A stretch of DNA of 64,000 bases from a virus (IMGVR_UViG_3300042922_001018), one strand, 5' to 3'; positions 1,689 through 32,551 are shown, counted from the stretch's first letter. A program made the numbers and translations. The notes: a model not told the origin generated them from the letters alone.

Positions 1689-2378
1689 TCAAGCTACGGC
1701 GTATTCGACCGGAATCCTGTTCTGCCACAGCGAGATGATGCGCTTCGGCTTCATGCCGTAGTCACGCGGCCCGCGGGCGGCGTTTCCTGCCAGCGCCAAC
1801 GCATAATACGGGGGAACCCCAGCGGTGTGCAGAGCCGCTAGGTCATCGACAGAGCAGACGATACCCTTCGTGTCCCTCACGTACTCTGGAGGAACGCCGA
1901 GCGCGTGCATCTGCCCCACGTCCTGCTTCGACCATTCGCCACGACCGTGGGAGGAAGACATGCTGTTGTTCGCCGCCGCTACCAGCTCGGCGGGAATCCC
2001 TGCGGCATAGTAGTCGGCGGCGCGCATGATGTCATGCCACTCGTGGGCGCAGCGCCGGTATGCGACACGATGCAGGTAGCTGCCGGGAACTTTCAGCATG
2101 CGCTGGATTTCCTCAGGGAACGGAAGCCCGTAAGAATCGCTCTGGATGTGCGCAGCCACCATGTACGCGAAGAGCACCATGTCTGATGTGTCTATGACAG
2201 CGACCGTGCGTCGCGACTGATGGAGCGTCGCGCGGAATCGGGAATCGGAGAGACTCTCAGAACAGAGGTCGGTGACCAGCATGAGGAAGTCGGCGTTGGT
2301 CATCATGCGGGCACCAGTGCCAGGTCCGGGAGGTACGCTCTGACCAGCTTCTCCGCATCCGCTGTCACAGTCTTCCAC
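1689..2378 (-). CDS. G[VI]PxEY[AL]-motif family protein (229 aa)
   Basis: Contains GIPAELVAAA, GVPPEYVRDT, GVPPYYALALAG and a C-terminal RIPVEYAVA. Confidence 0.6.
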   Translation of the reverse strand: MEDCDSGCGEAGQSVPPGPGTGARMMTNADFLMLVTDLCSESLSDSRFRATLHQSRRTVAVIDTSDMVLFAYMVAAHIQSDSYGLPFPEEIQRMLKVPGSYLHRVAYRRCAHEWHDIMRAADYYAAGIPAELVAAANNSMSSSHGRGEWSKQDVGQMHALGVPPEYVRDTKGIVCSVDDLAALHTAGVPPYYALALAGNAARGPRDYGMKPKRIISLWQNRIPVEYAVA

Positions 2379-2704
2379 GAGTCGCAGAAGATGAACCCGT
2401 ATGTGCCCACATCATCGAGAGAGTCCTGAAGATTCTCGCGGGCCATCGGGTACAGCACGCCACCGAACTTCGTGAACTCGTCGAATACCTCATCTGGCGT
2501 TCGCAACCCGCGGATGTCGAGAACCGTGTCGTCATCCACCTTGACGACGACATGACACCAGTACCGCTCGTTCGGGTCTACACCGTTTTCGTCCGCGTAA
2601 CCAACGCCCAGCATCGGCAGGCCCGTCAGCTCGCTCACTGCAATCGCGAGCGCCCAGCAATCACCTTCGGTGTAGTGAACCAGCTTGCGCGTCGAGAACA
2701 GCAT
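2303..2704 (-). CDS. hypothetical protein (~134 aa, start trimmed)
   Basis: Track ORF 2303-3052 has an Arg/Ser-rich N-terminus (overlap artefact); internal ATG at 2704 gives MLFSTRKLVHYTEGDCWALAIAV... Confidence 0.45.
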   Translation of the reverse strand: MLFSTRKLVHYTEGDCWALAIAVSELTGLPMLGVGYADENGVDPNERYWCHVVVKVDDDTVLDIRGLRTPDEVFDEFTKFGGVLYPMARENLQDSLDDVGTYGFIFCDSWKTVTADAEKLVRAYLPDLALVPA

Positions 2705-2723
2705 GCGACGAGCGTAGCAGAGG

Positions 2724-3059
2724 TCAGCGAGCCTTCGCAAGAAGAGCCGCCTTGGAACGCGCCGCTCGGAGCAACTGCTCGTGCTCGCGCTTCCGCTCCT
2801 CGAACTCGATAGCCGCCTTCTGGAGCGCGAGGTTGACGGACACTGCGTCCACTTCCACATCACCAGAAAGCTGGACCTCGGTGTAGTTCTGGTTGACCGG
2901 CTCCCACCACAGGAACCCGCCCAGCCGTCGCTCTGTGACGATGTACACCGACGACGGTGACGCGACCGTCCTACGGTTTTCGCTGTCTCCCACTTCGACA
3001 GAGTGGCGGAGATGCAGCCGCGTCTTCTGGTCAGAGAGCGGTGGGTGGACAATGTTCAC
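2724..3059 (-). CDS. hypothetical protein (~111 aa, GTG start overlapping upstream stop)
   Basis: Track ORF 2724-3293 N-terminus is junk; GTG at 3059 overlaps the TGA of gene 3056-3361 (GTGTGA); C-terminus coiled-coil-like ...EFEERKREHEQLLRAARSKAALLAKAR. Confidence 0.4.
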   Translation of the reverse strand: MNIVHPPLSDQKTRLHLRHSVEVGDSENRRTVASPSSVYIVTERRLGGFLWWEPVNQNYTEVQLSGDVEVDAVSVNLALQKAAIEFEERKREHEQLLRAARSKAALLAKAR

Positions 3060-3361
3060 ACGAAGCCTGCCTGCGAAACTTCGGCCCGCCCCTTGCGCCG
3101 AGCGAAGTAGTTGGCCGCGACGGAGTCGATAGCTGCCTGAAGGCCAGCTTCCCCCTGACCCTCGCGCCAGTAGTCCACGCGAAAGACGGGGTACTCGGAG
3201 GACATGTAGTCCTCGGTGAACTCCCAGAAAAGGAACTTCGCCCGGCGTGCGACGCTGACCTTGAAGGTCAGGCCGCGGGGAGGCTCGGGCCATTCGTCAG
3301 GCTCATACTGCTTGACGCGGATGAAGTCTCCGCCTTCGAGTTCCGGAATCTGAAGTGCCAT
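3056..3361 (-). CDS. hypothetical protein (101 aa)
   Basis: First gene downstream of the iteron-bearing noncoding region; Trp/Tyr-rich. Confidence 0.5.
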   Translation of the reverse strand: MALQIPELEGGDFIRVKQYEPDEWPEPPRGLTFKVSVARRAKFLFWEFTEDYMSSEYPVFRVDYWREGQGEAGLQAAIDSVAANYFARRKGRAEVSQAGFV

Positions 3362-4063
3362 GCGCTGAGTCTACCACAGAGCCTCCGACATGGTTCAGAG
3401 CGCGGATGCATCCGCGGGGAACACCCCTATGTAAGAGCACCTTGTTCATTGCAACATAAAGACCGGTTTGTGTATGACCCGTACTGCAACCGGGACGCAG
3501 GACACATCCCCTATCTATCTATCAATTTTGACTCTCTATCAAGAGTAAGTAGTAGTAGGGAGAGGGCTTTCTTCCCCGTATTTCCGCGGTTTCTGCCCGG
3601 TATCGACAGGGGAGTTCGCTCCCAGCTTTCTCTCAGACTTCTGTGTCCGGCTGGGACGCACTTGGGACACGGCTCAGATAAAGCCCAGGTCGCAAGCGGA
3701 AAATCCGGGACACAGGCCTGGGGAGGGCGTTTTCAACTTCTGACCTGGGCTTTTTAGTTGTTGGACTCAGTCCAACAACCCGTAGGTGCGTCCCGACGTA
3801 TTTTCTGGACTGAGTCCAACAACGTTTCTGGACTCAGTCCAACAATGTCTACGGTTCTTGGACGCAGTCCAACAACTCCGATTTACTTCTTGGACGCAGT
3901 CCAACAAGTCGAGGCTCGGACGCACGTATCCGATGGGCTTGGCGTCATCACTAAGACCATCTGGACGAATCATGGCCTCTGGGATGGGCTATGAGAGTGG
4001 TCTCAGCCCGCACCGGAGACTGATTACGCGCCCCATCATCGACGATGCGGACGGCGTGACCTA
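3362..4063. promoter_or_regulatory. ~700 bp noncoding control region (AT-rich tract, palindromes, iterons); candidate origin/operator/promoter
   Basis: Only large noncoding gap in the minus-strand train; AT-rich 3470-3560 (tctatctatctatcaattttgactctctatcaagagtaagtagtag) in a 66% GC background; perfect 16-bp palindrome CGCGGATGCATCCGCG 3401-3416; 12-bp inverted repeat AAAGCCCAGGTC/GACCTGGGCTTT; five iterons 3757-3908. Confidence 0.55.
3757..3908. repeat. Array of 5 iteron-like repeats, core TGGAC[TG][CG]AGTCCAACAA[CGT]
   Basis: Copies at 3757-3779 (perfect 23-bp palindrome GTTGTTGGACTCAGTCCAACAAC), 3805-3823, 3826-3846, 3855-3876, 3887-3908; each holds the 13-bp palindrome TGGACNCAGTCCA; centre-to-centre spacings ~45/22/30/32 bp, roughly integral helical turns. 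Confidence 0.85.
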
Positions 4064-4711
4064 CTAGAACTCGCTGCCGACGAAGGTCGTGTCGTTCTCG
4101 TAACGTGCAGCGTTCGCCAAGTCTTCCTCGGTCTGCTCGACGCCACCCGTGTTGATGAGACGGAAGATTTCTGCCTCTTCGCCGACGGTCTTGACGTTCG
4201 CTTCCAGAGTCGAGAACGGACGATTGCTCCAGTGGCGCTGGCCGATGATGGATAGACCGCTGTACGCGACTTCCGGCTCCTCCGAGTCCGGCTCTTCCAG
4301 GAAGCGGTCCTCGAACCAGTGGCGCGGGACGGTGAACTCGTCTTTCTCCCAAGCGCGCAGGGTCTCGATGCGCTGCTTGCCGTCCACGACTGCATACGCC
4401 TTTTGAAGGTGGTAGCCGCGCTTGTTGATGACGACCGAACCGGTGGGCAGGCCCATCAGCATGGAACGGACAAGAGCCTGGCGACGCTCAACGTCCCAGA
4501 CCGAGCCGCGCTGGTACGGGGTCTCCAGGTCGAACTGGTCGCCACCATCACGCTCCATGGTGTAGTGCTGAACGGTGTGGTTGTACGCCTGAAGCGAGAG
4601 ACGTGGCAGCGGCGCCGGGCGCGTCGGCAGCTTGACCTCAGGGGATGCGCCGGTCTTCTCAGCGAACTTGCCGTCGGTCTTGCGGGGGTGGTCGGTCTCG
4701 TCGAAGCTCAT
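4064..4711 (-). CDS. N-terminal-leader family protein with DUF262/ParB-like (GmrS-like) nuclease-fold domain
   Basis: MSFDETDHPRKTDGKFAEKTGASPEVKLP leader; then YQRGSVW...VVDGKQRIETL, resembling the DGQQR motif of the DUF262/ParB-Srx fold; SD GGAG 4 nt upstream. Confidence 0.65.
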   Translation of the reverse strand: MSFDETDHPRKTDGKFAEKTGASPEVKLPTRPAPLPRLSLQAYNHTVQHYTMERDGGDQFDLETPYQRGSVWDVERRQALVRSMLMGLPTGSVVINKRGYHLQKAYAVVDGKQRIETLRAWEKDEFTVPRHWFEDRFLEEPDSEEPEVAYSGLSIIGQRHWSNRPFSTLEANVKTVGEEAEIFRLINTGGVEQTEEDLANAARYENDTTFVGSEF

Positions 4712-9231: not shown

Positions 9232-10629
9232 TCAGCGACCGATGCGGAACTCGACGTTCTTGTCGTGCCGGACGCCTGTGGTCGGCCAGCCGATGCCTTC
9301 GATTTCCAGCGTGTTCGGTCCGACCTGGGTAATCTTCAGGTCGTTCGAGCCAGGGTCGCTGTGGATGGGCGAGCTGCCGCGGTAGTTGGCGTTCAGCGCG
9401 GAGATGTCCACCTGAATCTTCCACGAGGTGAAGAACTTCGCTTCGGGAGCACTGACACGGTAGTTCGCGCTCCACGTCCACTCGCCCGGCTGCTGGCTGA
9501 GCTTCTCCACCGTTACGTTGCTGGTGACGGGCGGCTTCGGCGTGTTGTAGTTGCAGATACGCAGCGTCCGCTCCTGGCCGTTCGTCAGGGTCGAGAAGTT
9601 GTTCCACTCGTTGTGGTTCTGGCCGACAACCTTGATTTTGCCGTTCTGGAACTCGCCATCGAAACCGTAACCCCAGGTCGGGAACTGGTAGTCGCCCTTG
9701 TTGAAGCCGCTGTTGAACGGTGCGGTTGCCGCGTTCATGGTGAGGTACCAGTTGTTCACGTTGCCGCCCGTGCCGCGTACGGTCACATCCACGCACACCT
9801 GGAAGGCGGACATCTGGTTCCAGACGACGCTCTTGATTTCGTAGGCGCCGGGTCCAGCCTCGAAAGCGGGAACGACAGCTTCGACGGGCGGGGCGGAGCC
9901 AGTCGGGTTCGGCGACGGGGACACGGGCTGCGAAGGGACAGGTGCCGGAACGTTCGGCTCTTCCGGGAGCGGCGTGGTCGCGGCGGGGGCGTCCGGCGGG
10001 TAGACCTCGGGGTCCAGACCCCAGAGTGCGTCAACCCACTGCCATGCCATCTGGTATTCGTTCACACCGGCCGGGAAGCGGAGGGTGCTGCCGCCGCTTG
10101 TGGTCGTGGCGGAGCCACCTACGCCGTTGGACGCGAGAGCCTGGACGCTGCCCTTCGGTCGGATTTCGAAGTCGTCCCGGATGTCGCCGATTTCCACTTC
10201 GATGGTCTCAGTCGAGAGCGAGGTGCGGACATAATGGGCGCCGGAAGCGCTTTCGATGAGAGCGGCCCATCCGGCGGGGGAGGAGCGGATGACGAGGTTC
10301 ACACCGTCACTCGGAACGAAGCCAATAGGCTCGATGGAGAGCGCGTTGTTCTTCTTGTCGCTGAGTACCTTCTCGCCCCACGCGAGCGGGAGGAAGGTAT
10401 CGTTCTGGGTCAACGCGGCGGCTTGGGAGACAGCAACGCGGTCAAGGTCGGCCTTGGCGTTCAAGTTCTGGGCGTTGGCGATGAACCCGGCCACGGCGAA
10501 GGTACCGCCGACAAGCAGGATGAGCGTGATGGCGATACCCGAGATAATGAGGATAGGGTCGCCCGCACCTCGTTCATGTTGGGCAGCGCGCAGTGCGCGA
10601 ATCAAGCGAGAGAGCATTCCATAATCCAT
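9232..10629 (-). CDS. TadE/pseudopilin-like N-terminal signal-anchor protein with large variable ectodomain (465 aa)
   Basis: N-terminus ...HERGAGDPILIISGIAITLILLVGGTFAVAGFIANAQNLNAKADLDRVAV (charged-ERG-[AS]-x-x-[DE] then ~22 hydrophobic residues); Gly/Ser/Thr/Asn-rich C-terminal region. Confidence 0.65.
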   Translation of the reverse strand: MDYGMLSRLIRALRAAQHERGAGDPILIISGIAITLILLVGGTFAVAGFIANAQNLNAKADLDRVAVSQAAALTQNDTFLPLAWGEKVLSDKKNNALSIEPIGFVPSDGVNLVIRSSPAGWAALIESASGAHYVRTSLSTETIEVEIGDIRDDFEIRPKGSVQALASNGVGGSATTTSGGSTLRFPAGVNEYQMAWQWVDALWGLDPEVYPPDAPAATTPLPEEPNVPAPVPSQPVSPSPNPTGSAPPVEAVVPAFEAGPGAYEIKSVVWNQMSAFQVCVDVTVRGTGGNVNNWYLTMNAATAPFNSGFNKGDYQFPTWGYGFDGEFQNGKIKVVGQNHNEWNNFSTLTNGQERTLRICNYNTPKPPVTSNVTVEKLSQQPGEWTWSANYRVSAPEAKFFTSWKIQVDISALNANYRGSSPIHSDPGSNDLKITQVGPNTLEIEGIGWPTTGVRHDKNVEFRIGR

Positions 10630-10740: not shown

Positions 10741-12084
10741 TCAATTAAGCGACACCAGGATGTCCACCGTTTCCCCGTTCCGGATGAGCTTGTCTCCTGT
10801 GCACGGCGTGTACACATAGTGGTGGAAACCAGTGTAGGCGCCTCCGGTAAACCGCTCCAAGCGCGCGCCCGCAGTCTCGACCGTGACTGCGCTTTGCGAA
10901 CCGGTGTACCCGTTAAACAGTGGAGCCAGGTCAACACCCGCGGCGAGAGGGCAGATGGGAACCTGAGAAGTCGTCGTCACAGTGATAGTGGCGCGGCGGC
11001 TCGTTGGCGTGCTGGTGGGGTCGAAGGTAACGGTGTGCGAGACGCTAGGGTTATTGTTGTTGTCCGTGAGGCGCTGCATGTCGGCGGCGCAGACACGGAA
11101 GTCCCGTGTCTCGCCGGGGGCGAGACCAGGCCCGGTGATGACGGCCGCTGGCCGGTTGAAGCCGCTGTAGGTCACCATCTCCCAGTCGGTGATGGAATAG
11201 TCCGGCGAGACACTCAGCGGTCCCGCGAATGTCATCGGCTTGTACAGCGTGGCGTCCCCACCGCTGTCTACGACCATGCGGAGCTGAGCGTTGGCCCCGG
11301 TGCCTGTGACCGTGATGGTGCCGCAAGCCTCCATGTCGGTTGCCGAACCCCATACCTGCCAGTGAATCTCGTCGATGACGTAGTTCGAGCCATCAGCGGG
11401 GAAGAAGGGAGCGGAATACCCCTTACGGTTCCGGGGGTCCGCGGCGCCGCCGTTAGCCTGCGTCAGAACGAAGTCGTGGCGCAGGGCGGGGCGCAGGCGG
11501 TTGGTCGTGGCTTCTACCCATCGCTCGGCCATCAGTTCTTCGTTGATACCCTCAGGGTATCGAACTGTTGTGTCGCCACCAACATTTGTCGCGCTGGCAC
11601 CCGTAGCCAAGATGGTACCGTCCAGTGCGGGCATGACATAGTCGTCTACGCGGTCAAGGTCAACCTCGACGGTTGCAGAAGACGAAGATGTGCGGAGGAA
11701 GTGACTTCCGGAGGCAGACTCGACGACGGCTGCCCAACCGCTTGGGCTGGTTCGCACGACGATGGACGCGCCTTCGCTCGGGACGAATCCCAGGGAAGAC
11801 TCAGCAAGACTGTGGTCAATCTGCTCGGGGTGGATGGCTGGTCCGACAGCCAGCGGTAGGAACGAGTCCTGCGACCCGAGGGCTGCGGCCTCTGCGGTGG
11901 CAACACGGTCAAGGTCGCTTTTCGCATTCGTGTTCTGTGCGTTGCCGATGAAACCGGAAACCGCGAAGGTTCCTCCGACGATGAGGATGAGGGTAATCGC
12001 GATACCGGCGATAATCAGGATGGGGTCTGTAGCTCCGCGTTCTGCAACGAACGCGCGCCGGTCTGCAAGAGTACGAGTGCGCAT
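10741..12084 (-). CDS. TadE/pseudopilin-like N-terminal signal-anchor protein, paralogue (447 aa)
   Basis: ERGATDPILIIAGIAITLILIVGGTFAVSGFIGNAQNTNAKSDLDRVATA; same family as 9232-10629 and the four genes at 33831-38543. Confidence 0.65.
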   Translation of the reverse strand: MRTRTLADRRAFVAERGATDPILIIAGIAITLILIVGGTFAVSGFIGNAQNTNAKSDLDRVATAEAAALGSQDSFLPLAVGPAIHPEQIDHSLAESSLGFVPSEGASIVVRTSPSGWAAVVESASGSHFLRTSSSSATVEVDLDRVDDYVMPALDGTILATGASATNVGGDTTVRYPEGINEELMAERWVEATTNRLRPALRHDFVLTQANGGAADPRNRKGYSAPFFPADGSNYVIDEIHWQVWGSATDMEACGTITVTGTGANAQLRMVVDSGGDATLYKPMTFAGPLSVSPDYSITDWEMVTYSGFNRPAAVITGPGLAPGETRDFRVCAADMQRLTDNNNNPSVSHTVTFDPTSTPTSRRATITVTTTSQVPICPLAAGVDLAPLFNGYTGSQSAVTVETAGARLERFTGGAYTGFHHYVYTPCTGDKLIRNGETVDILVSLN

Positions 12085-12847: not shown

Positions 12848-13144
12848 GCCGCGCTCGTCGCCGCCATGAGTGACGTGATGAACTTCATCCCGAACATCGT
12901 CACCGCCGTGGACATCTGGTACGAGGATGAGGAGGGCGCCGCCGAGTACCCCGGCTTCGAGGAGACGGGCATTGCCTATGAGGCCGCGGCAGCCGCCTCA
13001 TACATCGAGTTCCTGAACCTTCGCAACAGCCTCGACCGAGTCATGTCGTACGCGCACTACTACAACGAGTTCAGCAACTCGCTCAGCGACCTGACGACCT
13101 TCTGCGAGGGTTACGACTCCGACCGAGGAACTATCGTTCTGTGA
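12740..13144 (+). CDS. hypothetical protein (plus strand, ~134 aa)
   Basis: ATG 12740 (MATSLIDGDF...) inside track ORF 12671-13144; forms a 2-gene plus-strand insert with the GNAT gene. Confidence 0.45.
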   Translation: MATSLIDGDFQTAVANLDKARSALYDAGFENIGPLHAALVAAMSDVMNFIPNIVTAVDIWYEDEEGAAEYPGFEETGIAYEAAAAASYIEFLNLRNSLDRVMSYAHYYNEFSNSLSDLTTFCEGYDSDRGTIVL

Positions 13145-13542
13145 GCGAACCTATCTTGAAGCGTACCGATGAGGCGACCGGCGCCTGGGTGTCCGGCCGT
13201 CTGCTCGTCGGTGCGTTCACGGATGAGCATGCTGACGAGGCGTACTATTCGGACTTCGCGCCGTACGCGGACATCGTTTCCACCCGTGATGAGGAGCGTG
13301 TGCTGTTCGTTGCGGGCGTCTATGTCCCGACGGAGCATCGCGGACAAAGGCTCGGCCTGCGGCTTCTCGACGAACTAACCGAGGAGCTGGAAGCCGACAG
13401 AGATGTCCTGGTGGCACAAGAATTCGAGACGCCGTCCGCCTGGGTGCACCCCGCTCGTCTGGAGCTGTACTACTTCAACGCCGGGTTCCGACGCATCGGA
13501 TGGACGATGGAGCGGTGCCCGCTGATGCAGCGGGTTCACTGA
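13141..13542 (+). CDS. GNAT family N-acetyltransferase
   Basis: Motif A VYVPTEHRGQRLGLRLLDEL (R/Q-x-x-G-x-G/A); 133 aa. Confidence 0.6.
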   Translation: MSEPILKRTDEATGAWVSGRLLVGAFTDEHADEAYYSDFAPYADIVSTRDEERVLFVAGVYVPTEHRGQRLGLRLLDELTEELEADRDVLVAQEFETPSAWVHPARLELYYFNAGFRRIGWTMERCPLMQRVH

Positions 13543-15544: not shown

Positions 15545-16324
15545 TCAGTCCAGGTAGTCGAACGGTGCGGCCGTGTACATGATGGCCGCGTACTCGCGCG
15601 TCAGCCCCGCTTCAGCGTATGCCTGGATGTCGTCTTCCAGCACGCTGTTCCGGGCAAGTTCGATTCCGAGCAAGTAGTCGTTCTCCACGCCAGTCCACTC
15701 GGCGATAGCGGCGAGGTACGTGTCCACTTCGGCGCCGACGGCGATGCCTTCCAGGCTCAGAACTTCGTCGAGGACACGGCGTCCGAACTCGTCCCGTGAC
15801 GAAGTCGAAATGAGGTAGCTCTCAACATGGTACCCCTGCGCCATGTCGCACACCGCACCGAGGTACGAGATGTCTTCACCATCGGTGAATGCTTCGGGTT
15901 CGGCAGGGAAGGCGTTCGCTCCAACCCGCTCGCAGAGCAGCTTCTCGTACTGTGGCGCAATCAGCCACATGTTTTCTGCGGCCGACTTTCCAGTTGCGTC
16001 CGCAAGTCTGATGGCGAAGTCGGTCTTAGCCTTGCGCGGCAGCAGCCAACCATGGATGTGCTTCACCTCCGCAGCGATGGCTTCCAGCACATCCGCATGC
16101 TGGACGTACGCTCGCGCACACGTCTCCGGCGAGACGACGGCGACCTTAGTCGGTGTCAGGCCGAACAAGTCGCGGTAGACTCCGGCGGAGAAACGCTGAG
16201 CGGCCTCAGGAGCAAGTAACTCCAGTGCGCTCTGCATGTCATCCCTCCGCGGCATCGCTGACGCGAAGGTGTTCGGGTCGAAAGGCATGATGCTAGCGTA
16301 CGCCGCGAAGCCGCACTGTGTCAA
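15545..16324 (-). CDS. Array subfamily B protein (259 aa)
   Basis: C-terminus EAGLTREYAAIMYTAAPFDYLD; last gene of the long paralogue operon. Confidence 0.6.
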   Translation of the reverse strand: MTQCGFAAYASIMPFDPNTFASAMPRRDDMQSALELLAPEAAQRFSAGVYRDLFGLTPTKVAVVSPETCARAYVQHADVLEAIAAEVKHIHGWLLPRKAKTDFAIRLADATGKSAAENMWLIAPQYEKLLCERVGANAFPAEPEAFTDGEDISYLGAVCDMAQGYHVESYLISTSSRDEFGRRVLDEVLSLEGIAVGAEVDTYLAAIAEWTGVENDYLLGIELARNSVLEDDIQAYAEAGLTREYAAIMYTAAPFDYLD

Positions 16325-22782: not shown

Positions 22783-23607
22783 CTACGCGGCGGCGGACTG
22801 CTCTGTCAAGGCGAGAACGTATTCCAGGCTGATACCACTCGCCGCGTACTCGCGTACCTCAGACAGCGACACACCAGCGGTGGCTAGTTGAATCGCGGTG
22901 AGGACCGACTGGCGCGAACGGCCGAGCCAACGGTGAACCGTTTCGCGGTACGCGCCGCTGTCGGCGTAGTCGTCCTCCCACGATGGCCCGCCCAATCCGC
23001 CGTGGAGCCAGACGGTCGTCGCTTCCTGCTCGGTGTACTTCGCACGAGAGGAGCCGTTGATGGCGTACGCCAAGGCGAGACGTAGGAACTCGTCCACGGA
23101 GTCAGCCTTGACGAGAGCCGCGCGCGTGTTGAAAGTCCCGTCTCCGAGCGCGATAGCTTGCGACATGGCTTGAACTTGCTGGCTCGTTGTTGCCAGAGTG
23201 GTGCTAGGGGCCATAGCCGAAGGCGTGCGACGTGCGATGAAGGTCTCGAACGCGGGTGCGATATCAGTGCACACCGCAGCCCGGCTCTTCCTCGTCTTCT
23301 CAGAAGCGAGACGAATCGTCGTGTGCCGCGCCTCGTCCTCGTCATACGAATACTGTTGAGGTGCGTCGAATACAGCGGAGGCTGCCCACTCCAGCGCGGT
23401 GCCGTACTTCACATACGCTCGCGCCCAATCGACGGCTTCCGCCGGGTCCGGACGACGACCAGACGGCGGTTCGGCCGGACAGATGCGAACGTAGTCGCCT
23501 GAATCGAACCGACGCGACGCGCCCTTGTCGATGGCGGAAAGCTCTCGTTGCATGTCCGCTACCCACGGGATGTGCCGCAGGATAGTGTCGGCGCCGATGG
23601 AGAGCAT
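22783..23607 (-). CDS. Array subfamily C protein (start trimmed to MLSIGADTILRH)
   Basis: C-terminus AGVSLSEVREYAASGISLEYVLALTE; shares LRH[IV]P..A.MQ...A.D...RF..GEYR and WARAY motifs with 23639, 24427 and 54276. Confidence 0.5.
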   Translation of the reverse strand: MLSIGADTILRHIPWVADMQRELSAIDKGASRRFDSGDYVRICPAEPPSGRRPDPAEAVDWARAYVKYGTALEWAASAVFDAPQQYSYDEDEARHTTIRLASEKTRKSRAAVCTDIAPAFETFIARRTPSAMAPSTTLATTSQQVQAMSQAIALGDGTFNTRAALVKADSVDEFLRLALAYAINGSSRAKYTEQEATTVWLHGGLGGPSWEDDYADSGAYRETVHRWLGRSRQSVLTAIQLATAGVSLSEVREYAASGISLEYVLALTEQSAAA

Positions 23608-23638
23608 GGCGCCAGCGTATCGGGGAAACGGTCCGAGG

Positions 23639-24430
23639 TCAAGCGGATGGGGAATCCACCAGCGTGAGGGCATACTCCAGCTCGATGCCTGCCTCTCCGA
23701 ACTTCTTGACATCATCGAGAGGCACGTTCACGTCAGCCAGCTTCAAGGCCATGAGCATCGACTCGCGGCTCTCGCCGAACCATTCGAAGACCGCAGACTG
23801 ATAGCTGTCAACATCTTCACGAACGGTGAGCCATGCGTCAGTGTCTATCTGCGGGAACAATACGCTGGTCAGAGCGTAGAACAAGAACTCGTCCACGTTA
23901 GCCGACCGACGGAGAACGGCGATGCTCTGGAAGCGCATGTTGGAAGTCAAGTCCATGGCTCGCTCCATGAGCGCAACCTCAGAGTCCGTCTTCGCGAGCT
24001 GGGCGAGGAGCGGCATCTGGCCGGGGAAACGCCGTTCCATGAAGTCTTCGAAAGTGGGAATGATGCCGGTGCACACTCCGGCGCGCGACAGACCCGCGTG
24101 ACGTGCGGCCATCCCGAGCGCAGTGTGCTGGGCGTCGTAACCCGTGCGCGTGGGTACCGCGTAGGCTTCGCGCGCGCCATACTCCAGAACGTCCTGGTTC
24201 ACAATGTACGCTCGTGCCCAATCCGCGACCTCACCCTTCTGGCCGTATCCCTGGGCTACGGACGGGAACACCCGCCGGTACTCACCGTCGCTGAACCGCC
24301 CGAACGCTTCCAGGTCAACTGCCTGAAGACCGCTCTGCATCTGTGCGTACGACGGCACATGCCGTAGCAGAGTGTGAGGCGAAATGGTGACCATGACGCT
24401 AGTGTAGACGCGGGCAGCCCTTCCAGTCAA
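23639..24430 (-). CDS. Array subfamily C protein
   Basis: ...VNVPLDDVKKFGEAGIELEYALTLV. Confidence 0.5.
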   Translation of the reverse strand: MTGRAARVYTSVMVTISPHTLLRHVPSYAQMQSGLQAVDLEAFGRFSDGEYRRVFPSVAQGYGQKGEVADWARAYIVNQDVLEYGAREAYAVPTRTGYDAQHTALGMAARHAGLSRAGVCTGIIPTFEDFMERRFPGQMPLLAQLAKTDSEVALMERAMDLTSNMRFQSIAVLRRSANVDEFLFYALTSVLFPQIDTDAWLTVREDVDSYQSAVFEWFGESRESMLMALKLADVNVPLDDVKKFGEAGIELEYALTLVDSPSA

Positions 24431-25227
24431 GCGGTGACCGCAAGGACGTACTCCAGCGCCAGACCCTCGCGGTGGTACTCCGCGACCTGCTTGCGCGTCA
24501 CACCCATCTTCACGAGGCCCAGAGCAACTTCCCAGTCGGCGCGGCCGAGCCAGAGCTGCACCGCGTCGTGGTAGCTGTACCCATCCACCTCTTCCTGCTC
24601 AGTGCAATACAGGAGGAAGGTGAGAGTCTCACCGAAGTAGTGGCCGAGGCTCACAGCTTCGCAGACCGCGGTCCCATGATTGTAGACCCGAGTTCCTCGG
24701 AGGAGATTCGCCGCAAGATGGTACTGGTTCAGGAGGGCAATCTCTGCGGCCTCTGTTACAAGGCTCGCGTTCATGGGCGCGTCAGTACGGCCCAGTACGG
24801 TGAGGTACTTCTCGAAGATGGGAGAGATGTCTGTGGCAACGGCCGCTTCCGAAATCTGAGCTAGCCCTGCGGCGTACGAGAGGGTCTCGCCTGCGCTCTG
24901 CTCCGATAGTGGCGAGACGGAACTCAGCTTCTTGCCGAAGAAAAGCGTCGTTGACGCGGCCTTCTCCAGATGAGGCGCGTGCGCCAGGTACCCCCGTGCC
25001 CAGCTTGCGCTGCGGGCGGGATGTGTCCAGTAGTTCTCGTCAGGCCGGAAGTGCTCTCGATACTCGCCCCGCTCGAAACGGCCTGCGGCTTCTGGGTCCA
25101 GCCCGAGGAGCGCTTCGTGCATGCTGGAGTAGTTCGGCCGTGTACGAGCCAGCCCAGATTCGAGCTGGCTCGTCATGCCAACTCGCGAAGCATCAAGGCG
25201 TATTCCGGAGCGAGACCGTTGCGCCAT
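24427..25227 (-). CDS. Array subfamily C protein (start possibly 25176)
   Basis: ...MGVTRKQVAEYHREGLALEYVLAVTA. Confidence 0.5.
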   Translation of the reverse strand: MAQRSRSGIRLDASRVGMTSQLESGLARTRPNYSSMHEALLGLDPEAAGRFERGEYREHFRPDENYWTHPARSASWARGYLAHAPHLEKAASTTLFFGKKLSSVSPLSEQSAGETLSYAAGLAQISEAAVATDISPIFEKYLTVLGRTDAPMNASLVTEAAEIALLNQYHLAANLLRGTRVYNHGTAVCEAVSLGHYFGETLTFLLYCTEQEEVDGYSYHDAVQLWLGRADWEVALGLVKMGVTRKQVAEYHREGLALEYVLAVTA

Positions 25228-25667
25228 GCCGCGATGATGTCGTTCACCGGTATTGGTGTTCCGTTCGCTTCCGGGTGGTACGCGCGGAGGTAGTCGAGGG
25301 GAACACCCGCCTTGTAGAGTTTCCGCGCGCTCCGCAGCATCTCTTCCTGCTTTGCGATGCGGGCGTCACCGTCTCTCTTCCAGATGTGAGAGTAACGCCC
25401 GAAGAACTCACGGACCCAGTCCACGGTGTCTTCCTCAGCCGGGTCGGCGCCGAGCATGTATGGGAAGCGTAGGAGAACGCCGACGGGCGGGCGCTCAGGG
25501 CGGTACGGGTACCGTTCGCCTTCGAGGCTCACCTGGAAGATGGCAACGAAGAATCGGTCGAATACCGCGTAGTCGTTGTGGAAGCTGCGCTCGATGATGG
25601 TGTACTGCTTCGCCGAGAGACCGCTGAGCTGGTGCTGGATGAAATCGCGGAGCTTCTGGTCAGCCAT
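25173..25667 (-). CDS. Array subfamily A protein (164 aa)
   Basis: SFHNDYAVFDRF...AGVPLDYLRAYHPEANGTPIPVNDIIAAWRNGLAPEYALML. Confidence 0.6.
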   Translation of the reverse strand: MADQKLRDFIQHQLSGLSAKQYTIIERSFHNDYAVFDRFFVAIFQVSLEGERYPYRPERPPVGVLLRFPYMLGADPAEEDTVDWVREFFGRYSHIWKRDGDARIAKQEEMLRSARKLYKAGVPLDYLRAYHPEANGTPIPVNDIIAAWRNGLAPEYALMLRELA

Positions 25668-26187
25668 GCCCGTTCCTCAGGATGAGTGCGTATTCGACCG
25701 GGATACCCGCATTCCAGTAGCTCAGGATTTCGTCCACGGGAATGGCGGTCCGCGCTTCGGTGGGGTGGAATGCGCGAAGGTAGTGGAGGGGCACGCCGCC
25801 GTCGGCGAGGTGTTGCGCTTCGCTCAGGATGCGCGCAACCGGCGGACGGGGTTTCCCGAAGACGTGGGAGTACCTGTCAAGGAACTCGGTAGCCCATTCC
25901 CGAGCTTCGGCTTCGCGCGGTGACCGGCCGAAGACCACCGGAGCGTGAAGGAGGAACGCTGCACTCCATCGGTGACGCGGCTGCGGCCCGAACTTGGTGG
26001 CGGTCTCTTCGCGAGTCTGCCAGAACGGCCAGTCAGTGATGTCGATTTCCGTGACCGCCTTACTGAAGTCAGCAAGAACATCGAGGTCATGCTCGAAACT
26101 GGCCGCGATAGCCGCCTGGCGCTCGTCTGAGACGCCCAGACCACTCAGGTAGTAGTCCACGACGACTTCGATGGTTTCGGCCGTCAC
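25660..26187 (-). CDS. Array subfamily A protein (175 aa)
   Basis: SFEHDLDVLADF...GGVPLHYLRAFHPTEARTAIPVDEILSYWNAGIPVEYALIL. Confidence 0.6.
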   Translation of the reverse strand: MTAETIEVVVDYYLSGLGVSDERQAAIAASFEHDLDVLADFSKAVTEIDITDWPFWQTREETATKFGPQPRHRWSAAFLLHAPVVFGRSPREAEAREWATEFLDRYSHVFGKPRPPVARILSEAQHLADGGVPLHYLRAFHPTEARTAIPVDEILSYWNAGIPVEYALILRNGHG

Positions 26188-26687
26188 AGGGCGCTCCTAG
26201 CGGTCAGAAGGTACTCTACAGAGACGCCAGAGACCCACAACTCGCGCAGCTCCGCAACGTTCGTGATGCCAGCCCGCATCAGAGACTCGATGAACGTGCC
26301 GGAGACACGCTCTTCTATGAAGGTACGAGCTTGTCGCCGCGAAAGCAGCGCCTCAGACCCACGCAGTTCCCAGCCGTTCGTCGTCAAGCGACCCCACGCG
26401 GCTGCGTCCGGGGCAGACGCTCGCTGTCGCAGCATGAGAGGCGTCGCGATGATGCGGCCCACTCCGTCTGGAACGAATGTCGGAGCGGAATCCTTCCACA
26501 TCTCAGCGACCGTATCCGAACCGGTCACAGCAGTCAGGTACGAGTTCACGAGGTCTGGCTTGCCGTTGAAGCTTTCACGGATGTCCCGGACTTCTGTCGG
26601 TGTGGGCCGAAGCCCACGCTTCAGCCCCTTGCTGGGACTCCACGCCCAACGGCGTACATAGTCCTCGAAGGAGAGAAGCTCGGTCAC
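26184..26687 (-). CDS. Array family protein, divergent (167 aa)
   Basis: RAGITNVAELRELWVSGVSVEYLLTARSAL. Confidence 0.5.
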   Translation of the reverse strand: MTELLSFEDYVRRWAWSPSKGLKRGLRPTPTEVRDIRESFNGKPDLVNSYLTAVTGSDTVAEMWKDSAPTFVPDGVGRIIATPLMLRQRASAPDAAAWGRLTTNGWELRGSEALLSRRQARTFIEERVSGTFIESLMRAGITNVAELRELWVSGVSVEYLLTARSAL

Positions 26688-26718
26688 CTCATCAGACTAC
26701 AGCAGCGGCGGTCCTGAG

Positions 26719-27429
26719 TCAAGGTGTGTACGCGGCAGGAAGAACCACGCGCCACTGCAAGCTACCCTCGACCATGGTGAAGCCTTCAGCCTCGAACAGC
26801 TTCACCATGCCAGGCAGATGGGCCGCACCCCAGTACAGAACGTGGGCGGGTGCGCTGGAGAACATCACGCTGCTCACAGCGTATTCGTTCCGGCGGTGCA
26901 GAATGTTCTTGGACAAGTCGCCGCCGATGAAGAGGCTGAGGAACCCCGGCATGACGGGCAGTAGGCGAAGCATCGCGAGAACCGTGTCCGGAGACGACTT
27001 CAAGATGTCGAGGTCCATGCGCCCGAGCTTCTCCAGGCGCCGGACGGTACGCGGCTTTAGAGCGCGGGCGATGTCGAGAGCCGACATATCTACCGGAATC
27101 CAGCGGGCATCCGCAGCAGCGAAAGCGTCTTTCTGGTACACGAGGCCAGTGGTCTCAGCGAGCAGCTTGCTCACGTCGCCCAGGGTAGTGATGGTGTTCA
27201 GGCGCGCCTGCTCCTCGGCGGTCACCTTCTCGGAGACCGGGCGGACGCCTTCCAGGTGAATGGTCCGGCCTTCGGCTTCCCACCGCCTCAACATGGCGAT
27301 GTCATGGTCCCAGGAATCCTGCGTAGCGACATGCTGGACGGCGACGAGCGTTACCGTATGCCCGTACGAGTTCCGGAGGAGGACCGTGCCCATCTCCGAA
27401 CCGCGCGCGGTTCGACGAGTGTACTTCAT
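26719..27429 (-). CDS. Possible TraB/GumN (TIKI)-like family protein inserted in the array
   Basis: 236 aa; C-terminal LYWGAAHLPGMVKLFEAEGFTMVEG resembles the GumN [AV]GAAHL.G motif; weak assignment. Confidence 0.4.
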   Translation of the reverse strand: MKYTRRTARGSEMGTVLLRNSYGHTVTLVAVQHVATQDSWDHDIAMLRRWEAEGRTIHLEGVRPVSEKVTAEEQARLNTITTLGDVSKLLAETTGLVYQKDAFAAADARWIPVDMSALDIARALKPRTVRRLEKLGRMDLDILKSSPDTVLAMLRLLPVMPGFLSLFIGGDLSKNILHRRNEYAVSSVMFSSAPAHVLYWGAAHLPGMVKLFEAEGFTMVEGSLQWRVVLPAAYTP

Positions 27430-28019
27430 GCGTCCAAGACTAGCATGCCCTCCGCGAGGAGCGTCTGAGCGTATTCGTAGGCGATTCCCGTGCGATGCAA
27501 CGCGATGACTTCGTCGATGCTCTTCATCGTCATCGTGGGGCGATAGAACAGGGCGGCAAACTCAGGGGGTACTCCGCCTCGGTGGAAACGGCGAGCGGCG
27601 ATGACCGGACGAGACTTCAGGACGTATTCGCTGCGTTCACCAGCCTTGCCGAAGGGGAGAAAGAGCCGCGCCCAGATGGCCGCTTCTGGCTCCCGAGGGT
27701 CAAGACGAAGCATGAGCGGGAGCATCAGTGCGTCGTAGACTCGGCCGATTTGGCGAGTCGTACTTTCGGGGATGTAATGGTTTCGCTCGGACATGTGCAG
27801 CCAGGTGAGGCCCGATACGTCGGCGGTGGCGTATGCGTTCAGGTAGCCGTGCAGAACGTCGATGTCGTCATGGAAGCTGGCGTACAGCGCTGCGCGCTTT
27901 CTTCCCGGCGCGAGCGCATGCTCTGAGACCCAGAAGTCGATGAACGCGCGCAGCGCTTCTTTCGGGTCATCGGGCCGCTTCATGTCAAAACCGTACCACT
28001 TTCGGTACGGTTTTGACAA
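27426..28019 (-). CDS. Array subfamily A protein (197 aa)
   Basis: ASFHDDIDVLHGYL...DPREPEAAIWARLFLP...RGGVPPEFAALF...TGIAYEYAQTLL. Confidence 0.6.
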   Translation of the reverse strand: MSKPYRKWYGFDMKRPDDPKEALRAFIDFWVSEHALAPGRKRAALYASFHDDIDVLHGYLNAYATADVSGLTWLHMSERNHYIPESTTRQIGRVYDALMLPLMLRLDPREPEAAIWARLFLPFGKAGERSEYVLKSRPVIAARRFHRGGVPPEFAALFYRPTMTMKSIDEVIALHRTGIAYEYAQTLLAEGMLVLDA

Positions 28020-28020
28020 G

Positions 28021-28557
28021 TCACCAGCTCTCGCTGAGCGCGATGCGCACGTACTCGGGCGCGAGTCCCTCGTGGTATGCAGAGATGATGAGGCGCTGCG
28101 TTGGACCTTTCATCCCCCGCACGTAGTACGTGGCAGCGTACGCCGCAGGCACTCCAGCTCGATGGAAGCGTCGCGCTGCGATGACCGCTTGGGACTTCAC
28201 GGAACAGTCGGCGTATTCGTCCGTCGGGAGGAATAGGCGTGCCCACTCCGCCACCTCGTCTTCACGCGGGTCAAGGCCCAGCATCGAGGGGAGCATGATG
28301 GCTTCGGCGAGACGGCCGACCTGAGCAGTGACGGCACGCGAAGGATGCGGCATAACGCGTCCCGGCTCGAACCGTTGCCAGAGCAGCTCGCGTACGTCTA
28401 CTCCGACGTATCGGGCTAGGTAGCCGTAGAGGACTTCAACATCATGATGGAAGCTCGCACGGATGCGGTGGCGCTTCTCCGAAGCTGTCATGCTGTACCC
28501 GAGCCAATAGTCGGTCAACATGCGCAGCATCACTGAATGCTGCCGCGCTGTGTCCAT
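28021..28557 (-). CDS. Array subfamily A protein (178 aa)
   Basis: ASFHHDVEVLYGYL...DPREDEVAEWARLFLP...RAGVPAAYAATY...EGLAPEYVRIAL. Confidence 0.6.
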   Translation of the reverse strand: MDTARQHSVMLRMLTDYWLGYSMTASEKRHRIRASFHHDVEVLYGYLARYVGVDVRELLWQRFEPGRVMPHPSRAVTAQVGRLAEAIMLPSMLGLDPREDEVAEWARLFLPTDEYADCSVKSQAVIAARRFHRAGVPAAYAATYYVRGMKGPTQRLIISAYHEGLAPEYVRIALSESW

Positions 28558-28589
28558 GACAGAATCATCTCATTTCTGAGTCGTTTTTG

Positions 28590-29105
28590 TCAACCCGGAT
28601 AGATGGCGAGCCGAGCGTACTCCAGTGGCGTTCCCTCTTCGTACGCGGTAACCACAGCGTCTACGGGGATGTACGCGTGAAGCTGCGGCGGGTCGAACGC
28701 CTGGAAGTAGGAGAGGGGAACGCCGCTGTTGATAGCGTGCCGCACGGCATCAGAGGACCGGAATCTGGTCACTTCGTCGAAGCCGCCTCGCGCCGTCTGC
28801 GCGACACGGGAGGTGGCGAACTTCGCCCATTCGGCGGTCTCAGGGTCTCGCGGGTCCATCTTGTAGTCGTCAGGGAACGTCAGCGTTTCGACACGGTCCG
28901 CGATGAGGTCAGCGTCACGGATTTCCGGGATGTCGTTGTCCCACTCGATGTAGACGAAGGGGACTTCCTGCTCCCCGAACACTCGTCGCAGGTAGGTAAT
29001 GAGCGTCTCGTATTCACCGTAGAGCGTGAGGAGGGCGTCCTTCCGCTGAGGTACCCACGCTCCGAGAATCTCCTCCAGCGTATTGTCGATGCCTGAGCGG
29101 CTCAC
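28590..29105 (-). CDS. Array subfamily A protein (GTG start overlapping upstream stop, GTGA)
   Basis: DPRDPETAEWAKFA...SGVPLSYFQAFDPPQLHAYIPVDAVVTAYEEGTPLEYARLAI. Confidence 0.55.
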   Translation of the reverse strand: MSRSGIDNTLEEILGAWVPQRKDALLTLYGEYETLITYLRRVFGEQEVPFVYIEWDNDIPEIRDADLIADRVETLTFPDDYKMDPRDPETAEWAKFATSRVAQTARGGFDEVTRFRSSDAVRHAINSGVPLSYFQAFDPPQLHAYIPVDAVVTAYEEGTPLEYARLAIYPG

Positions 29106-29596
29106 AGCACGACGCTCAGGTAATCGGCGGGGACACCTTCGCGCCATCCTGCGATGACATCAGTGGTCGGGTACTCACCCCACGGCGCCGTGACGCTGTT
29201 CGCATAGCTCAGCGGTACGCCCGCATCGAGCAGCAGGAACATGTCGTCCGTATCCGGGAACCGCGGGAACGTCCGATACTTGCCGGTCTCCTCGTCGAAG
29301 ATGACCCGCTCGGCAGCAAACACAGCCCAAGCCGCGGTCTCTGCGTCACGCGGGTCCATCCCGCTGCGCACCGGGAAAAGGACGACATCCCCAGGAGTCG
29401 GCTGGTCGATTCCGTGGTTGCCGGTGAGCGCTTGGTCCGCCCAGTCGCCGTAGACGCGCGAGAAGTAGTCCTTGAACACCAGGGCGTCATGGTGGAAGGC
29501 TTCGAGTGTGCTCCACACGCTGACTCGGGGAACATGCTTCTCGACCAGCTCTCGCAGGTCGGTCTTATCGTCTATCAAGTCCAGTAGCTTCGTCAT
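29102..29596 (-). CDS. Array subfamily A protein (start trimmed to MTKLLDLIDD)
   Basis: EAFHHDALVFKDYF...GMDPRDAETAAWAVFA...AGVPLSYANSV...EGVPADYLSVVL. Confidence 0.55.
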   Translation of the reverse strand: MTKLLDLIDDKTDLRELVEKHVPRVSVWSTLEAFHHDALVFKDYFSRVYGDWADQALTGNHGIDQPTPGDVVLFPVRSGMDPRDAETAAWAVFAAERVIFDEETGKYRTFPRFPDTDDMFLLLDAGVPLSYANSVTAPWGEYPTTDVIAGWREGVPADYLSVVL

Positions 29597-30114
29597 GCTG
29601 ACCCTCCGTAGATGATTTCCTGCGCATACTCGACCGCCAGACCCTCTGCGTGTGCCTGGAAGATGCGCTCCAAGGGAAGCTTCTCGCCCCAGTAGGTAAC
29701 GTCGAGAGCCTTCACGTAAGCGAGTGAGACACCGCGCTCGCAGAGCTGCCGCGTGTTCCAGGCGGGAGCGTCGAAACGGCTGAGCGGCATGTAAGCATCC
29801 GGATGTATCTCGATGCTGCGGTGAATAGCGAACGCCGCCCACTCGCCGGTCTCTGGAGACCTGGGGTCCAGACCGCTGAGGAACGGGAATGTGAGGGCTT
29901 CCGGAAGGTCACCGATGGTGGCGAGAATCGCATCTGCCGAGTCGAAGCCGTCCATGACGAGTTTCGTGTTCTTCCCGTAGATGAGAGTCAGGTACTCGCG
30001 CAGCACGTCGAGGTCGTCATGGAAAGACTCCACGTAGGACGCCGTGCTGTTGTCCTTGACCCACCGGCCGATGATGTTGGTCACGGCGCTCGCGTGCTCG
30101 CCCCGTCGGCTCAT
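29593..30114 (-). CDS. Array subfamily A protein (173 aa)
   Basis: ESFHDDLDVLREYL...GLDPRSPETGEWAAFA...RGVSLAYVKAL...EGLAVEYAQEII. Confidence 0.6.
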   Translation of the reverse strand: MSRRGEHASAVTNIIGRWVKDNSTASYVESFHDDLDVLREYLTLIYGKNTKLVMDGFDSADAILATIGDLPEALTFPFLSGLDPRSPETGEWAAFAIHRSIEIHPDAYMPLSRFDAPAWNTRQLCERGVSLAYVKALDVTYWGEKLPLERIFQAHAEGLAVEYAQEIIYGGSA

Positions 30115-31240: not shown

Positions 31241-31272
31241 ATCGCCATCGTACCCCGATGTCTATGCCGGTG

Positions 31273-31464
31273 TCAACCGCCGTTCAGCGCGTTGACGACG
31301 AACCCGATGAGGAGCACGACGCCGAACACTCCGAGTACGACGTACTGGATGCGGTTTGCGAGCAGGAACCGCTGGAAAGTCTTCTTCTGCGCTTCCTCTG
31401 TGACAGCGCGAGTATACTCGGTCGGTTCGGTGGAGTGGGGGTCGAAGTCCGCGGGGCGTTCCAT
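31273..31464 (-). CDS. small membrane protein (63 aa)
   Basis: C-terminal TM YVVLGVFGVVLLIGFVVNAL; divergent from the SPFH gene. Confidence 0.35.
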   Translation of the reverse strand: MERPADFDPHSTEPTEYTRAVTEEAQKKTFQRFLLANRIQYVVLGVFGVVLLIGFVVNALNGG

Positions 31465-31513
31465 CTCTACATCCTACCGGATGGTTTCGGGAAACATGCG
31501 ATAGACTGCCACC

Positions 31514-32500: not shown

Positions 32501-32504
32501 GCCG

Positions 32505-32551
32505 AAACGAGAATGCCCCGACCGCATCGCGTGGTCGGGGCATTCTCGTTT
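32505..32551. terminator. Bidirectional rho-independent terminator (19-bp perfect stem, 9-nt loop, flanking A/T tracts)
   Basis: AAACGAGAATGCCCCGACC-gcatcgcgt-GGTCGGGGCATTCTCGTTT, 5 nt after the SPFH stop. Confidence 0.75.

Follow-up and report, generated by a model that had tools for sequence, protein, structure and literature searches.

The question raised by this locus is what a 702-bp island of non-coding DNA, the widest gap between called genes in the window, does for the element that carries it. The window, i.e., the whole 64,000-nucleotide stretch of IMGVR_UViG_3300042922_001018 that was analyzed, is identical to a stretch of a 450,372-bp metagenome contig of the Joint Genome Institute (JGI; 3300042934, Ga0456364_0000048), and an identical sequence is present in the metagenomic sample SRR35185192. 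From its sequence, the element appears to be a giant (~450 kb), uncultured, actinobacterial plasmid-like element, distantly related to the megaplasmids of Curtobacterium. The island (positions 3362–4063) had been described in an earlier note as a candidate replication origin or operator cluster. The observation itself was confirmed, all four features being found at the coordinates given and well above what chance would produce, while its interpretation was partly supported: the operator part held, with the repeats of the island having the same sequence as a site found at lipB and TetR genes, and the origin part found no support, in view of the lack of a nearby initiator gene and of DnaA boxes. 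That the element replicates from the island is improbable. The interpretation favoured here, to which we give about an even chance of being correct, is that the island is a conserved intergenic control module, in which a terminator-insulated array of operators for a host-type TetR repressor, plus a promoter, split a series of co-directional genes into two units.

The array is formed by five copies (R1–R5) of a repeat, designated P1, the consensus of which is the 21-bp palindrome TTGTTGGAC-N3-GTCCAACAA, with the 5-N3-5 core TGGAC-N3-GTCCA:

3757–3779 (21-bp repeat at 3758–3778): R1, the perfect 23-bp palindrome GTTGTTGGACTCAGTCCAACAAC

3802–3822: R2, TTTCTGGACTGAGTCCAACAA, with two mismatches to the palindrome consensus

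3825–3845: R3, TTTCTGGACTCAGTCCAACAA, with two mismatches to the palindrome consensus

3855–3875: R4, TTCTTGGACGCAGTCCAACAA, with one mismatch to the palindrome consensus

3887–3907: R5, TTCTTGGACGCAGTCCAACAA, with one mismatch to the palindrome consensus

Both the number of copies and the perfect symmetry of the first one agree with what had been noted before. The P1 pattern gave 11 matches, counting both strands, versus 0.36 expected, and this number was reached by none of 100 shuffles. Copies R2–R5 all retain the core and one perfect 9-nt arm, and R1 is the best conserved copy across the relatives of the element (0–1 mismatch). The start-to-start spacings of 44, 23, 30 and 32 bp correspond to 4.2, 2.2, 2.9 and 3.0 helical turns, near the 2, 3 and 4 turns proposed earlier; since the copies spread over ~140 degrees around the helix, the phasing is only approximate. 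The search for further copies, proposed earlier as a check, gave little: the only match outside the island in the 64 kb was one with three mismatches, at 18003, and none was found in the flanks of the relatives or in pCPAA3, a complete 567-kb plasmid of Curtobacterium pusillum, the element itself having been read over 70 of its 450 kb.

The P1 sites display the dyad symmetry, over ~15–21 bp, of TetR-family operators. On the other hand, the overlap with a promoter that is expected of such operators is absent from the array. In the aligned islands, no conserved -10 element adjoins any P1 copy on either strand; a -10-like hexamer, TACGGT, lies 4 nt beyond R3 on the plus strand and is not kept in the relatives, and the nearest conserved promoter is ~400 bp away from the array.

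Concerning the identity of the protein that could recognize these sites, an exact scan for TTGTTGGACNNNGTCCAACAA, run on one genome per species over 185,579 species, returned 27 loci. The palindrome occurs as a single-copy site in nine actinobacterial genomes, and in six of them (four of Cellulomonas, one of Microbacterium and one of Curtobacterium, all exact 18/18 matches) it is directly upstream of lipB (LplA-B_cat). In these cases, the distance from the end of the palindrome to a -10-like hexamer or to the start codon is 3–17 nt, a position that corresponds to the placement of a repressor operator covering the -35 element and the spacer. In Microbacterium sp. AK009, the site is between lipB and a divergent TetR gene (L116, 5742–6710); in Frigoribacterium faeni (L113, 1915–2550), it is 22 nt upstream of a homologous TetR gene (43% identity); and a degenerate copy, TTTCTGTACTGAGTCCAAGAT, occupies the orthologous place in Curtobacterium (L117, 4034–4054). 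The regulator concerned, a TetR_N+TetR_C_14 protein named 'acyl-CoA-like ligand-binding transcription factor' in some sources, is encoded on the chromosome and widely found in Frigoribacterium, Frondihabitans and Curtobacterium. The repeat of the island is identical to this sequence found at promoters next to a TetR gene, and TetR_N+TetR_C_14 and lipB apparently share a 21-bp operator in Micrococcales, which would be a previously undescribed regulatory link; no description of this TetR-lipB operator, nor of the element family, was found in literature searches. As to the surroundings of these genes, the TetR gene of Frigoribacterium and Curtobacterium is divergent from an SBP_bac_5 ABC-transporter operon, and in Curtobacterium lipA follows lipB.

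No element-encoded TetR of the TetR_C_14 type was found in the window or in the related loci, either by tblastn or with a profile hidden Markov model (E ≤ 10, positive controls found). Such regulators are also absent from the Microbacteriaceae plasmids in PLSDB, and pCPAA3 contains neither one of them nor a P1-like site. As no cognate TetR is present in the sequence available, the one occupying the array would most likely be that of the host, which would be of the Micrococcales type and probably belong to Microbacteriaceae.

Nearly half of the scan loci (13 of the 27) correspond to an unrelated use of the sequence, namely a dispersed element similar to repetitive extragenic palindromes (REP-like) in one metagenome-assembled genome (MAG) of Proteobacteria and in Brevundimonas. 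The palindrome is at the centre of this element, flanked by gaccgaaatcgg...cagatttcggtc, in genomes of alphaproteobacterial type (L092, L095, L097, L099, L106–L108, L111 and L115 for MAG JAEYTA01, with 10 contigs; L094, L101 and L112 for Brevundimonas).

The conservation of the island was studied in related contigs traced through homologs of the gene that precedes it. The two genes flanking the island are the following:

4064–4711, minus strand: DUF262/GmrSD_N gene of 215 aa, the last gene of the upstream operon (Pfam GmrSD_N, E = 7e-16)

3056–3361, minus strand: orf101, the first gene of the next transcription unit, whose orphan product is made of four beta strands and a long helix

The island was found at the same place in four relatives: L082 (a contig of 394,845 bp; European Nucleotide Archive, ERZ27275912, k141_7139624), L087, L090 and, partially, L088, where the comparison extends only as far as the contig, i.e., over 441 nt of the island. 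A related contig bearing the island is also present in sample SRR25400337. The DUF262 gene precedes the island in all five contigs that bear it, and the DUF262 proteins of the four relatives are 76–79% identical to that of the window. Between contigs whose DUF262 genes are 73–79% identical, the DNA of the island is 62–69% identical, with long invariant blocks. Reading from the DUF262 stop codon, the order in the relatives is: T1 hairpin, P1 sites, T2 hairpin, P2 boxes, CTACTACTACYTACTC...AATTGATAGATAG, small palindromes and promoter. The number of P1 copies varies from two to five, with conserved spacing (31/32, 30, 23 and 44 bp).

Three more distant relatives (L085, L086 and L089; DUF262 62–64% identical) lack the island and keep the neighbouring genes. 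In them, DUF262 is followed after 12–21 nt by an unrelated gene of ~100 aa (orfX), and the gene order further downstream differs. Since DUF262 is closely followed by another gene where the island is absent, the presence of the island correlates with an operon break, and the comparison indicates a lineage-specific module coinciding with that break rather than a core feature of the element family. orfX is restricted to the relatives without the island (1689–3361 was compared with 6660–8200 of L085, L086 and L089, and with L090). As for orf101, it is the first gene after DUF262 in the window, L082 and L087, the third in the relatives without island, and in L090 it is missing from this position. 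The genes that follow DUF262 are shuffled among the relatives, and this makes the site resemble a hot spot of recombination.

Two ways in which the island could derive from coding sequence were rejected. A decayed gene is at odds with the lack of tblastn similarity between orfX and the island, and a conserved small open reading frame with the changes in copy number and the indels, which disrupt every reading frame. Four independent short-read assemblies end at or inside the island: L083 (345 nt in), L084 (29 nt), L088 (441 nt) and L121 (49 nt). Repeats, strain-level differences in copy number or low coverage of the AT-rich part are the likely causes, and these ends may also reflect a physical end or a rearrangement point. 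When IMG/VR was scanned with the repeat, with the pattern of the conserved AT block and with the two flanking proteins, there were either no matches or single, scattered ones attributable to chance; the genome scan for the AT-block pattern gave nothing, and the island had no match in phage and plasmid collections (megablast, blastn).

Besides the array, the features of the island and of its limits, in the minus-strand direction, are these:

3926–4063, minus strand: window-specific spacer of 138 bp, unrelated to the T1 region of the relatives and with a weak fold (z -1.9)

3680–3755: T2, a long hairpin preceded by an A-run and followed by a T-run, with the conserved internal box CTGTGTCCCGGATTTT

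3640–3672: cluster of P2 boxes (CTG[CT]GTCCCG / CGGGAC[GA]CAG), a second, GC-rich family of motifs

3610–3629: conserved block, GTCTGAGAGAAAGCTGGGAG on the coding strand, nearly invariant in five sequences

3507–3562: AT-rich conserved block, CCCTACTACTACTTACTC...AATTGATAGATAGATAGGGG on the coding strand

3416–3427: small palindrome, GGGGAACACCCC

3401–3416: small palindrome, CGCGGATGCATCCGCG, perfect over 16 bp

3359–3376, minus strand: leaderless promoter of orf101, with the extended -10 TGgTAGACT (3376..3368), 6 nt and ATG (3361..3359)

Directly 3′ of the DUF262 stop codon, L082, L090, L087 and L088 have terminator-like, non-homologous T1 hairpins (folding free energy -38 to -55 kcal/mol, z -3.6 to -11.8); in the window this place is taken by the spacer, which showed no similarity to the sequences compared. 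The T2 hairpin includes the 12-bp inverted repeat reported in the earlier note, AAAGCCCAGGTC (3680–3691) / GACCTGGGCTTTTT (3742–3755), whose arms extend imperfectly to 40 nt. The base of its stem, CCCAGGTC/GACCTGGG, is kept in five of five sequences, with one compensatory exchange of G-C to C-G, and so are the T-rich tails on both strands. T2 has the GC-rich stem followed by a T-run that is typical of an intrinsic terminator and, given the A-run before and the T-run after it, is terminator-like in both directions; a simple terminator scanner skipped it because its loop is longer than 8 nt.

P2 boxes are present at about eight places in the architecture of the island, with further ones at 3913–3925, 3784–3795, 3706–3714 and 3484–3506, and in the relatives the cluster is a tight palindrome, CTGCGTCCCG-N-CGGGACGCAG. 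The AT-rich tract described earlier is real, with a GC fraction of 0.38–0.40 over 3500–3574, and it includes the 60-mer poorest in GC anywhere in the window (0.37, at 3511); the background against which it stands is ~62% GC instead of the 66% given. The P2 boxes and the imperfect AT-rich hairpin suggest a second binding protein. The halves CCCTACTACTAC and GATAGATAGATAGGGG of the AT-rich block (3507–3562) are mutually complementary with regular single-base bulges, and its (TAC)3 block is complementary to the GTGGTA of the orf101 -10 region, ~185 nt off. The 16-bp perfect palindrome was found where it had been noted; the two small palindromes (3401–3427) occupy about -40 to -66 relative to the start of orf101, and of the two, GGGG..CCCC is conserved in four of four sequences and CGCGG..CCGCG in three of four.

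The promoter of orf101, TGGTAGACT-CAGCGC-ATG (3376..3359), has no Shine-Dalgarno sequence before the ATG, which is the presumed transcription start. An extended -10 directly before the start codon is the standard arrangement of actinobacterial leaderless promoters, and the orf101 start conforms to the pattern, with TGNTANNNT 6–7 nt before a start codon devoid of Shine-Dalgarno, so that it can be taken as a putative promoter of this type. Its -10, within the motif GTGGTAnnCT-N6-ATG (kept in four of four), is the one TANNNT that lines up across the four full-length islands when both strands are considered; no other conserved promoter of the sigma-70 type was apparent on either strand in the rest of the aligned islands. 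A scan of the island for the sigma-70 consensus gave no promoter, this scanner being blind to the actinobacterial leaderless type, which was found by pattern search. With a leaderless promoter of its own, orf101 would open a new transcription unit. The orf101 product was also considered as a DNA-binding protein, a proposal that was rejected for want of a supporting fold.

In the window as a whole, TGNTANNNT-N5-7-ATG/GTG gave 25 matches, and in at least 12 cases the match stops precisely at a predicted start codon. As the motif coincides exactly with so many predicted starts, leaderless transcription from an extended -10 seems to be the rule in the element. The ATG form of the motif is found at the predicted starts at 1461, 2719, 39586, 51934, 55552, 56165, 57179, 58251, 59449, 61646 and 62560, among others, and the promoter at 39586 (TGATAGACTCAGCGTATG) is almost identical to that of orf101.

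Taken in the direction of the minus strand, the proposed control module would work as follows. A terminator-like region would close the DUF262 operon, and next would come the array of five P1 sites (2–5 in the relatives) having the same sequence as the lipB/TetR operator, presumably occupied by a TetR-family dimer. After it, the long two-way intrinsic terminator T2 would act, followed by ~300 bp of densely conserved DNA with P2 boxes and the AT-richest spot, and finally the leaderless extended -10 promoter would start orf101. An array without a promoter of its own, ~400 bp from the next one, is probably not a classical promoter-overlapping operator. Once bound, it could be a ligand-sensitive roadblock or insulator versus read-through between the operons, and/or a sink by which the element retains the repressor of the host. 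The identity of the repeat with the chromosomal site, the promoter motif, the hairpins, and the conservation of the island in some relatives and its absence from others are all observed in the sequences, from which the binding of a TetR dimer and the function of the array are inferred.

Several points weigh against this proposal. TetR is proposed as the binder because its gene adjoins the site in two genera, to which the degenerate site in a third can be added. An identical palindrome is found in a distant uncultured Actinomycetota MAG (L114, 5315–5335) just before the start of a 318-aa gene of the MarR family, whose product has a C-terminal half resembling a putative acetyltransferase (GNAT), so that another family of regulators may read the palindrome. 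The search for an element-encoded regulator covered 70 kb of the 450-kb contig, and one may therefore be encoded elsewhere on the element. TetR proteins normally act at promoters, which makes a promoterless array unusual. Moreover, ~300 bp of strongly conserved DNA, with the P2 boxes and the AT-rich block, are outside the account given by the model, and the coding strand shows some covariation of base pairs (7 of 45 pairs, a level seen in none of 500 shuffles), which leaves room for a role of RNA or single-stranded DNA.

A bolder version, which we hold to be rather unlikely, is that a family of 400–450-kb elements carries a promoterless array of host-TetR operators, either as a sink that would de-repress the lipB regulon of the host or as a host-factor-dependent switch that would tie a cis function (replication, maintenance or read-through) to the lipid or lipoate state, with the P2 boxes and the AT-rich hairpin binding a further, element-encoded protein.

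The comparison with known systems helps to place the control module. The operator of BioQ, a TetR-family regulator, is a 5-N3-5 palindrome, TGAAC-N3-GTTCA. The site of the island is likewise dyad-symmetric, with a 5-N3-5 core extended to 21 bp, and identical single sites overlap the -35 element and spacer of lipB promoters and adjoin a TetR gene. Unlike TetR-family operators, the island has five sites in a row on a mobile element, with no promoter overlap, with terminators on both sides, and with no gene for a cognate regulator within its reach. The datA locus of Escherichia coli titrates a regulator, DnaA, and the island resembles it in being a promoterless cluster of binding sites that plausibly holds a regulator; it differs in its location on a mobile element and in having a metabolic repressor of the TetR type as its target, titration being here only a proposal. 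The cer site of ColE1 and psi of pSC101 use host proteins in an architectural role, namely ArgR (cer), ArcA (psi) and PepA. As in cer and psi, the island is a plasmid-borne, non-coding cis site of ~200–500 bp with sites for a host transcription factor rather than for a plasmid protein; in contrast with them, it has five sites instead of one and no recognized Xer core site or recombinase.

Among the other explanations, a replication origin of the lambda ori or iteron kind is unlikely in our opinion. In such an origin, P1 and/or P2 would bind an initiator, the AT-rich block would unwind, and the terminators would shield the complex from transcription. It would account for the two families of repeated motifs that look like binding sites, for the location of the AT-richest 60-mer of the 64 kb inside the largest non-coding gap, for the terminator-like hairpins that flank the array and insulate it from transcription, and for the dense conservation of the architecture; lambda ori and iteron origins also share with the island four to five dyad repeats ~2–4 turns apart, an AT-rich tract and further palindromes. 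However, there is no initiator or DNA-binding gene nearby, as no rep, helicase-loader, primase or partition gene was found within ~10 kb or among the flanking genes, and, in agreement with the earlier note, no DnaA box (TTRTCCACA) was found in 3362–4063 with up to one mismatch, nor any enrichment in the window. Gene direction does not change at the island. The GC skew, suggested earlier as a check for an origin, showed no switch: from -6 kb to +39 kb it has one sign on either flank, interrupted by a local dip, in a test that is weak here. The little power of this test is deduced from pCPAA3 (567,298 bp; L122–L133), the cumulative skew of which is near-monotonic, with a minimum at ~35 kb, a maximum at ~530 kb and no return to zero, and follows gene orientation; either one strand carries nearly all the genes or replication departs from the symmetric, bidirectional mode. 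In addition, the island is missing from three syntenic relatives that keep all the neighbouring conserved genes, its repeat equals a chromosomal, host-type repressor operator and not a known iteron, and the AT-rich block is ~200 bp from the array, with the T2 terminator and ~130 bp between them. A site for plasmid maintenance is quite improbable, be it a partition centromere or multimer-resolution site using the host transcription factor architecturally, or an array like parS or sopC lying just past a ParB-fold gene. The AlphaFold model of the DUF262 protein (predicted local distance difference test score, pLDDT, 86.5) has ParB/Noc N-terminal domains as its best Foldseek matches (E about 2e-3, template modelling score 0.36–0.40) and indicates a ParB/Srx fold, so that, as in sopC of F or parS of P1, a palindrome array immediately downstream of a gene of ParB fold is found, promoterless, insulated, variable in copy number (2–5) with conserved spacing, and made of sites of the host transcription factor type. 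Unlike those systems, the locus has no ParA partner, the DUF262 protein has no recognizable helix-turn-helix, and the gene occurs without the array in relatives. No ParA, ParM, or TubZ-type gene or recombinase was found in the ~60 window proteins scanned, and inspection of the alignment by eye, no formal search having been made, revealed no Xer core resembling dif. A type I partition centromere (parS/sopC), which would call for an adjacent parA-parB operon with a helix-turn-helix in its ParB, agrees poorly with the locus, where DUF262 has only a ParB/Srx fold and no ParA family member was found among the upstream genes.

The complementary boxes could instead form a large structured non-coding RNA, or a signal in single-stranded DNA such as a priming site or a single-stranded promoter, with the palindromes acting as hairpins; we give little credence to this. 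The minus-strand fold of 3660–3930 has a z of -8.4, the consensus fold closes a multi-hairpin domain of ~290 nt, conservation is dense, and in the promoter-proximal 200 nt double changes occur in 7 of 45 pairs, with 95.6% of the cells paired, a result reached by 0 of 500 shuffles. These figures come from only 4–5 sequences, and the alignment used for the test (four sequences) is the one that had supplied the structure. For the array, for T2 and for the part in the middle, covariation contributes nothing or counts against the fold, and the changes in the palindrome arms are mostly uncompensated in the opposite arm. No match to Rfam 15 reached the gathering score, only noise appeared at E ≤ 10, and the best weak match had 19 bits versus a cut-off of 98. 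Neither strand has a conserved promoter of the sigma-70 type from which such an RNA could be made, other than the leaderless one that closes the island, and strong terminator-like hairpins lie upstream of the array in the relatives. RNA repeats of the ToxI kind, of a type III toxin-antitoxin system, were rejected in view of the irregular spacing (44, 23, 30 and 32 bp) and of the next gene being ~320 bp past the terminator with its own promoter. Finally, a dispersed mobile repeat without local function, either REP-like or of the miniature inverted-repeat transposable element (MITE) kind, is hardly tenable. The same 21-bp palindrome is indeed the core of a dispersed repeat in the Proteobacteria MAG (10 contigs) and Brevundimonas, and four short-read assemblies break at or inside the island. 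Against this, the 64 kb outside the island contain a single match, with three mismatches (18003), the related loci outside the island and pCPAA3 contain none, isolated, scattered matches were all that IMG/VR gave, in Actinobacteria the site is present in a single copy at orthologous promoters, and in five contigs the island keeps one position and one architecture.

With respect to the surroundings of the island, the nearest database relatives and a few informative proteins point to large Microbacteriaceae plasmids (Curtobacterium replicons of 545–607 kb), and no phage matches were found for the window. Its genes are mainly on the minus strand, and nearly all of them have no Pfam or PHROG match. 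The statement that the island is the only long non-coding stretch in 38 kb of one-strand coding holds for the gap, the largest one, and not for the strand, as two opposite-strand genes at ~12.7–13.5 kb break the long run. Tandem paralogous orphan genes, none with a Pfam match, fill most of 9232–38543 on the minus strand:

33831–38543 (four genes), 9232–10629 and 10741–12084, minus strand: Family A, 380–465 aa, 41–73% identity

16321–22583, minus strand: Family B, 230–336 aa, eight members

25173–33300, minus strand: Family C, 165–246 aa, about eleven members

15545–16324 and 22783–25227, minus strand: Family D

Recognizable genes are few. They include, at 44038–49037, a ResIII helicase (874 aa) adjoining an N6/N4 DNA methyltransferase (802 aa) and, elsewhere, a fatty-acid desaturase, an AbiEii-type toxin and a weak GNAT match (58253–59341, 61047–61631 and 13141–13542, respectively). 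The window contains no tRNA or tmRNA.

As to the meaning of these results, if the island does no more than separate operons by means of borrowed sites, it is regulatory DNA of an ordinary kind. What is unusual is the presence, on a giant mobile element, of a promoterless, insulated array of host operator sites. If it is true that the array captures a metabolic repressor of the host, it would offer a clear example from nature of the use of repeated, promoterless host operators by a mobile element. The host-factor sites known at cer and psi are single, and phages carry LexA boxes; the array would go beyond both. The finding also points to an undescribed regulatory link between TetR and lipB in Micrococcales and, if the proposal is true, the 21-bp site together with its candidate chromosomal regulator would provide an experimental handle on giant actinobacterial elements in which nearly all the genes are orphans.

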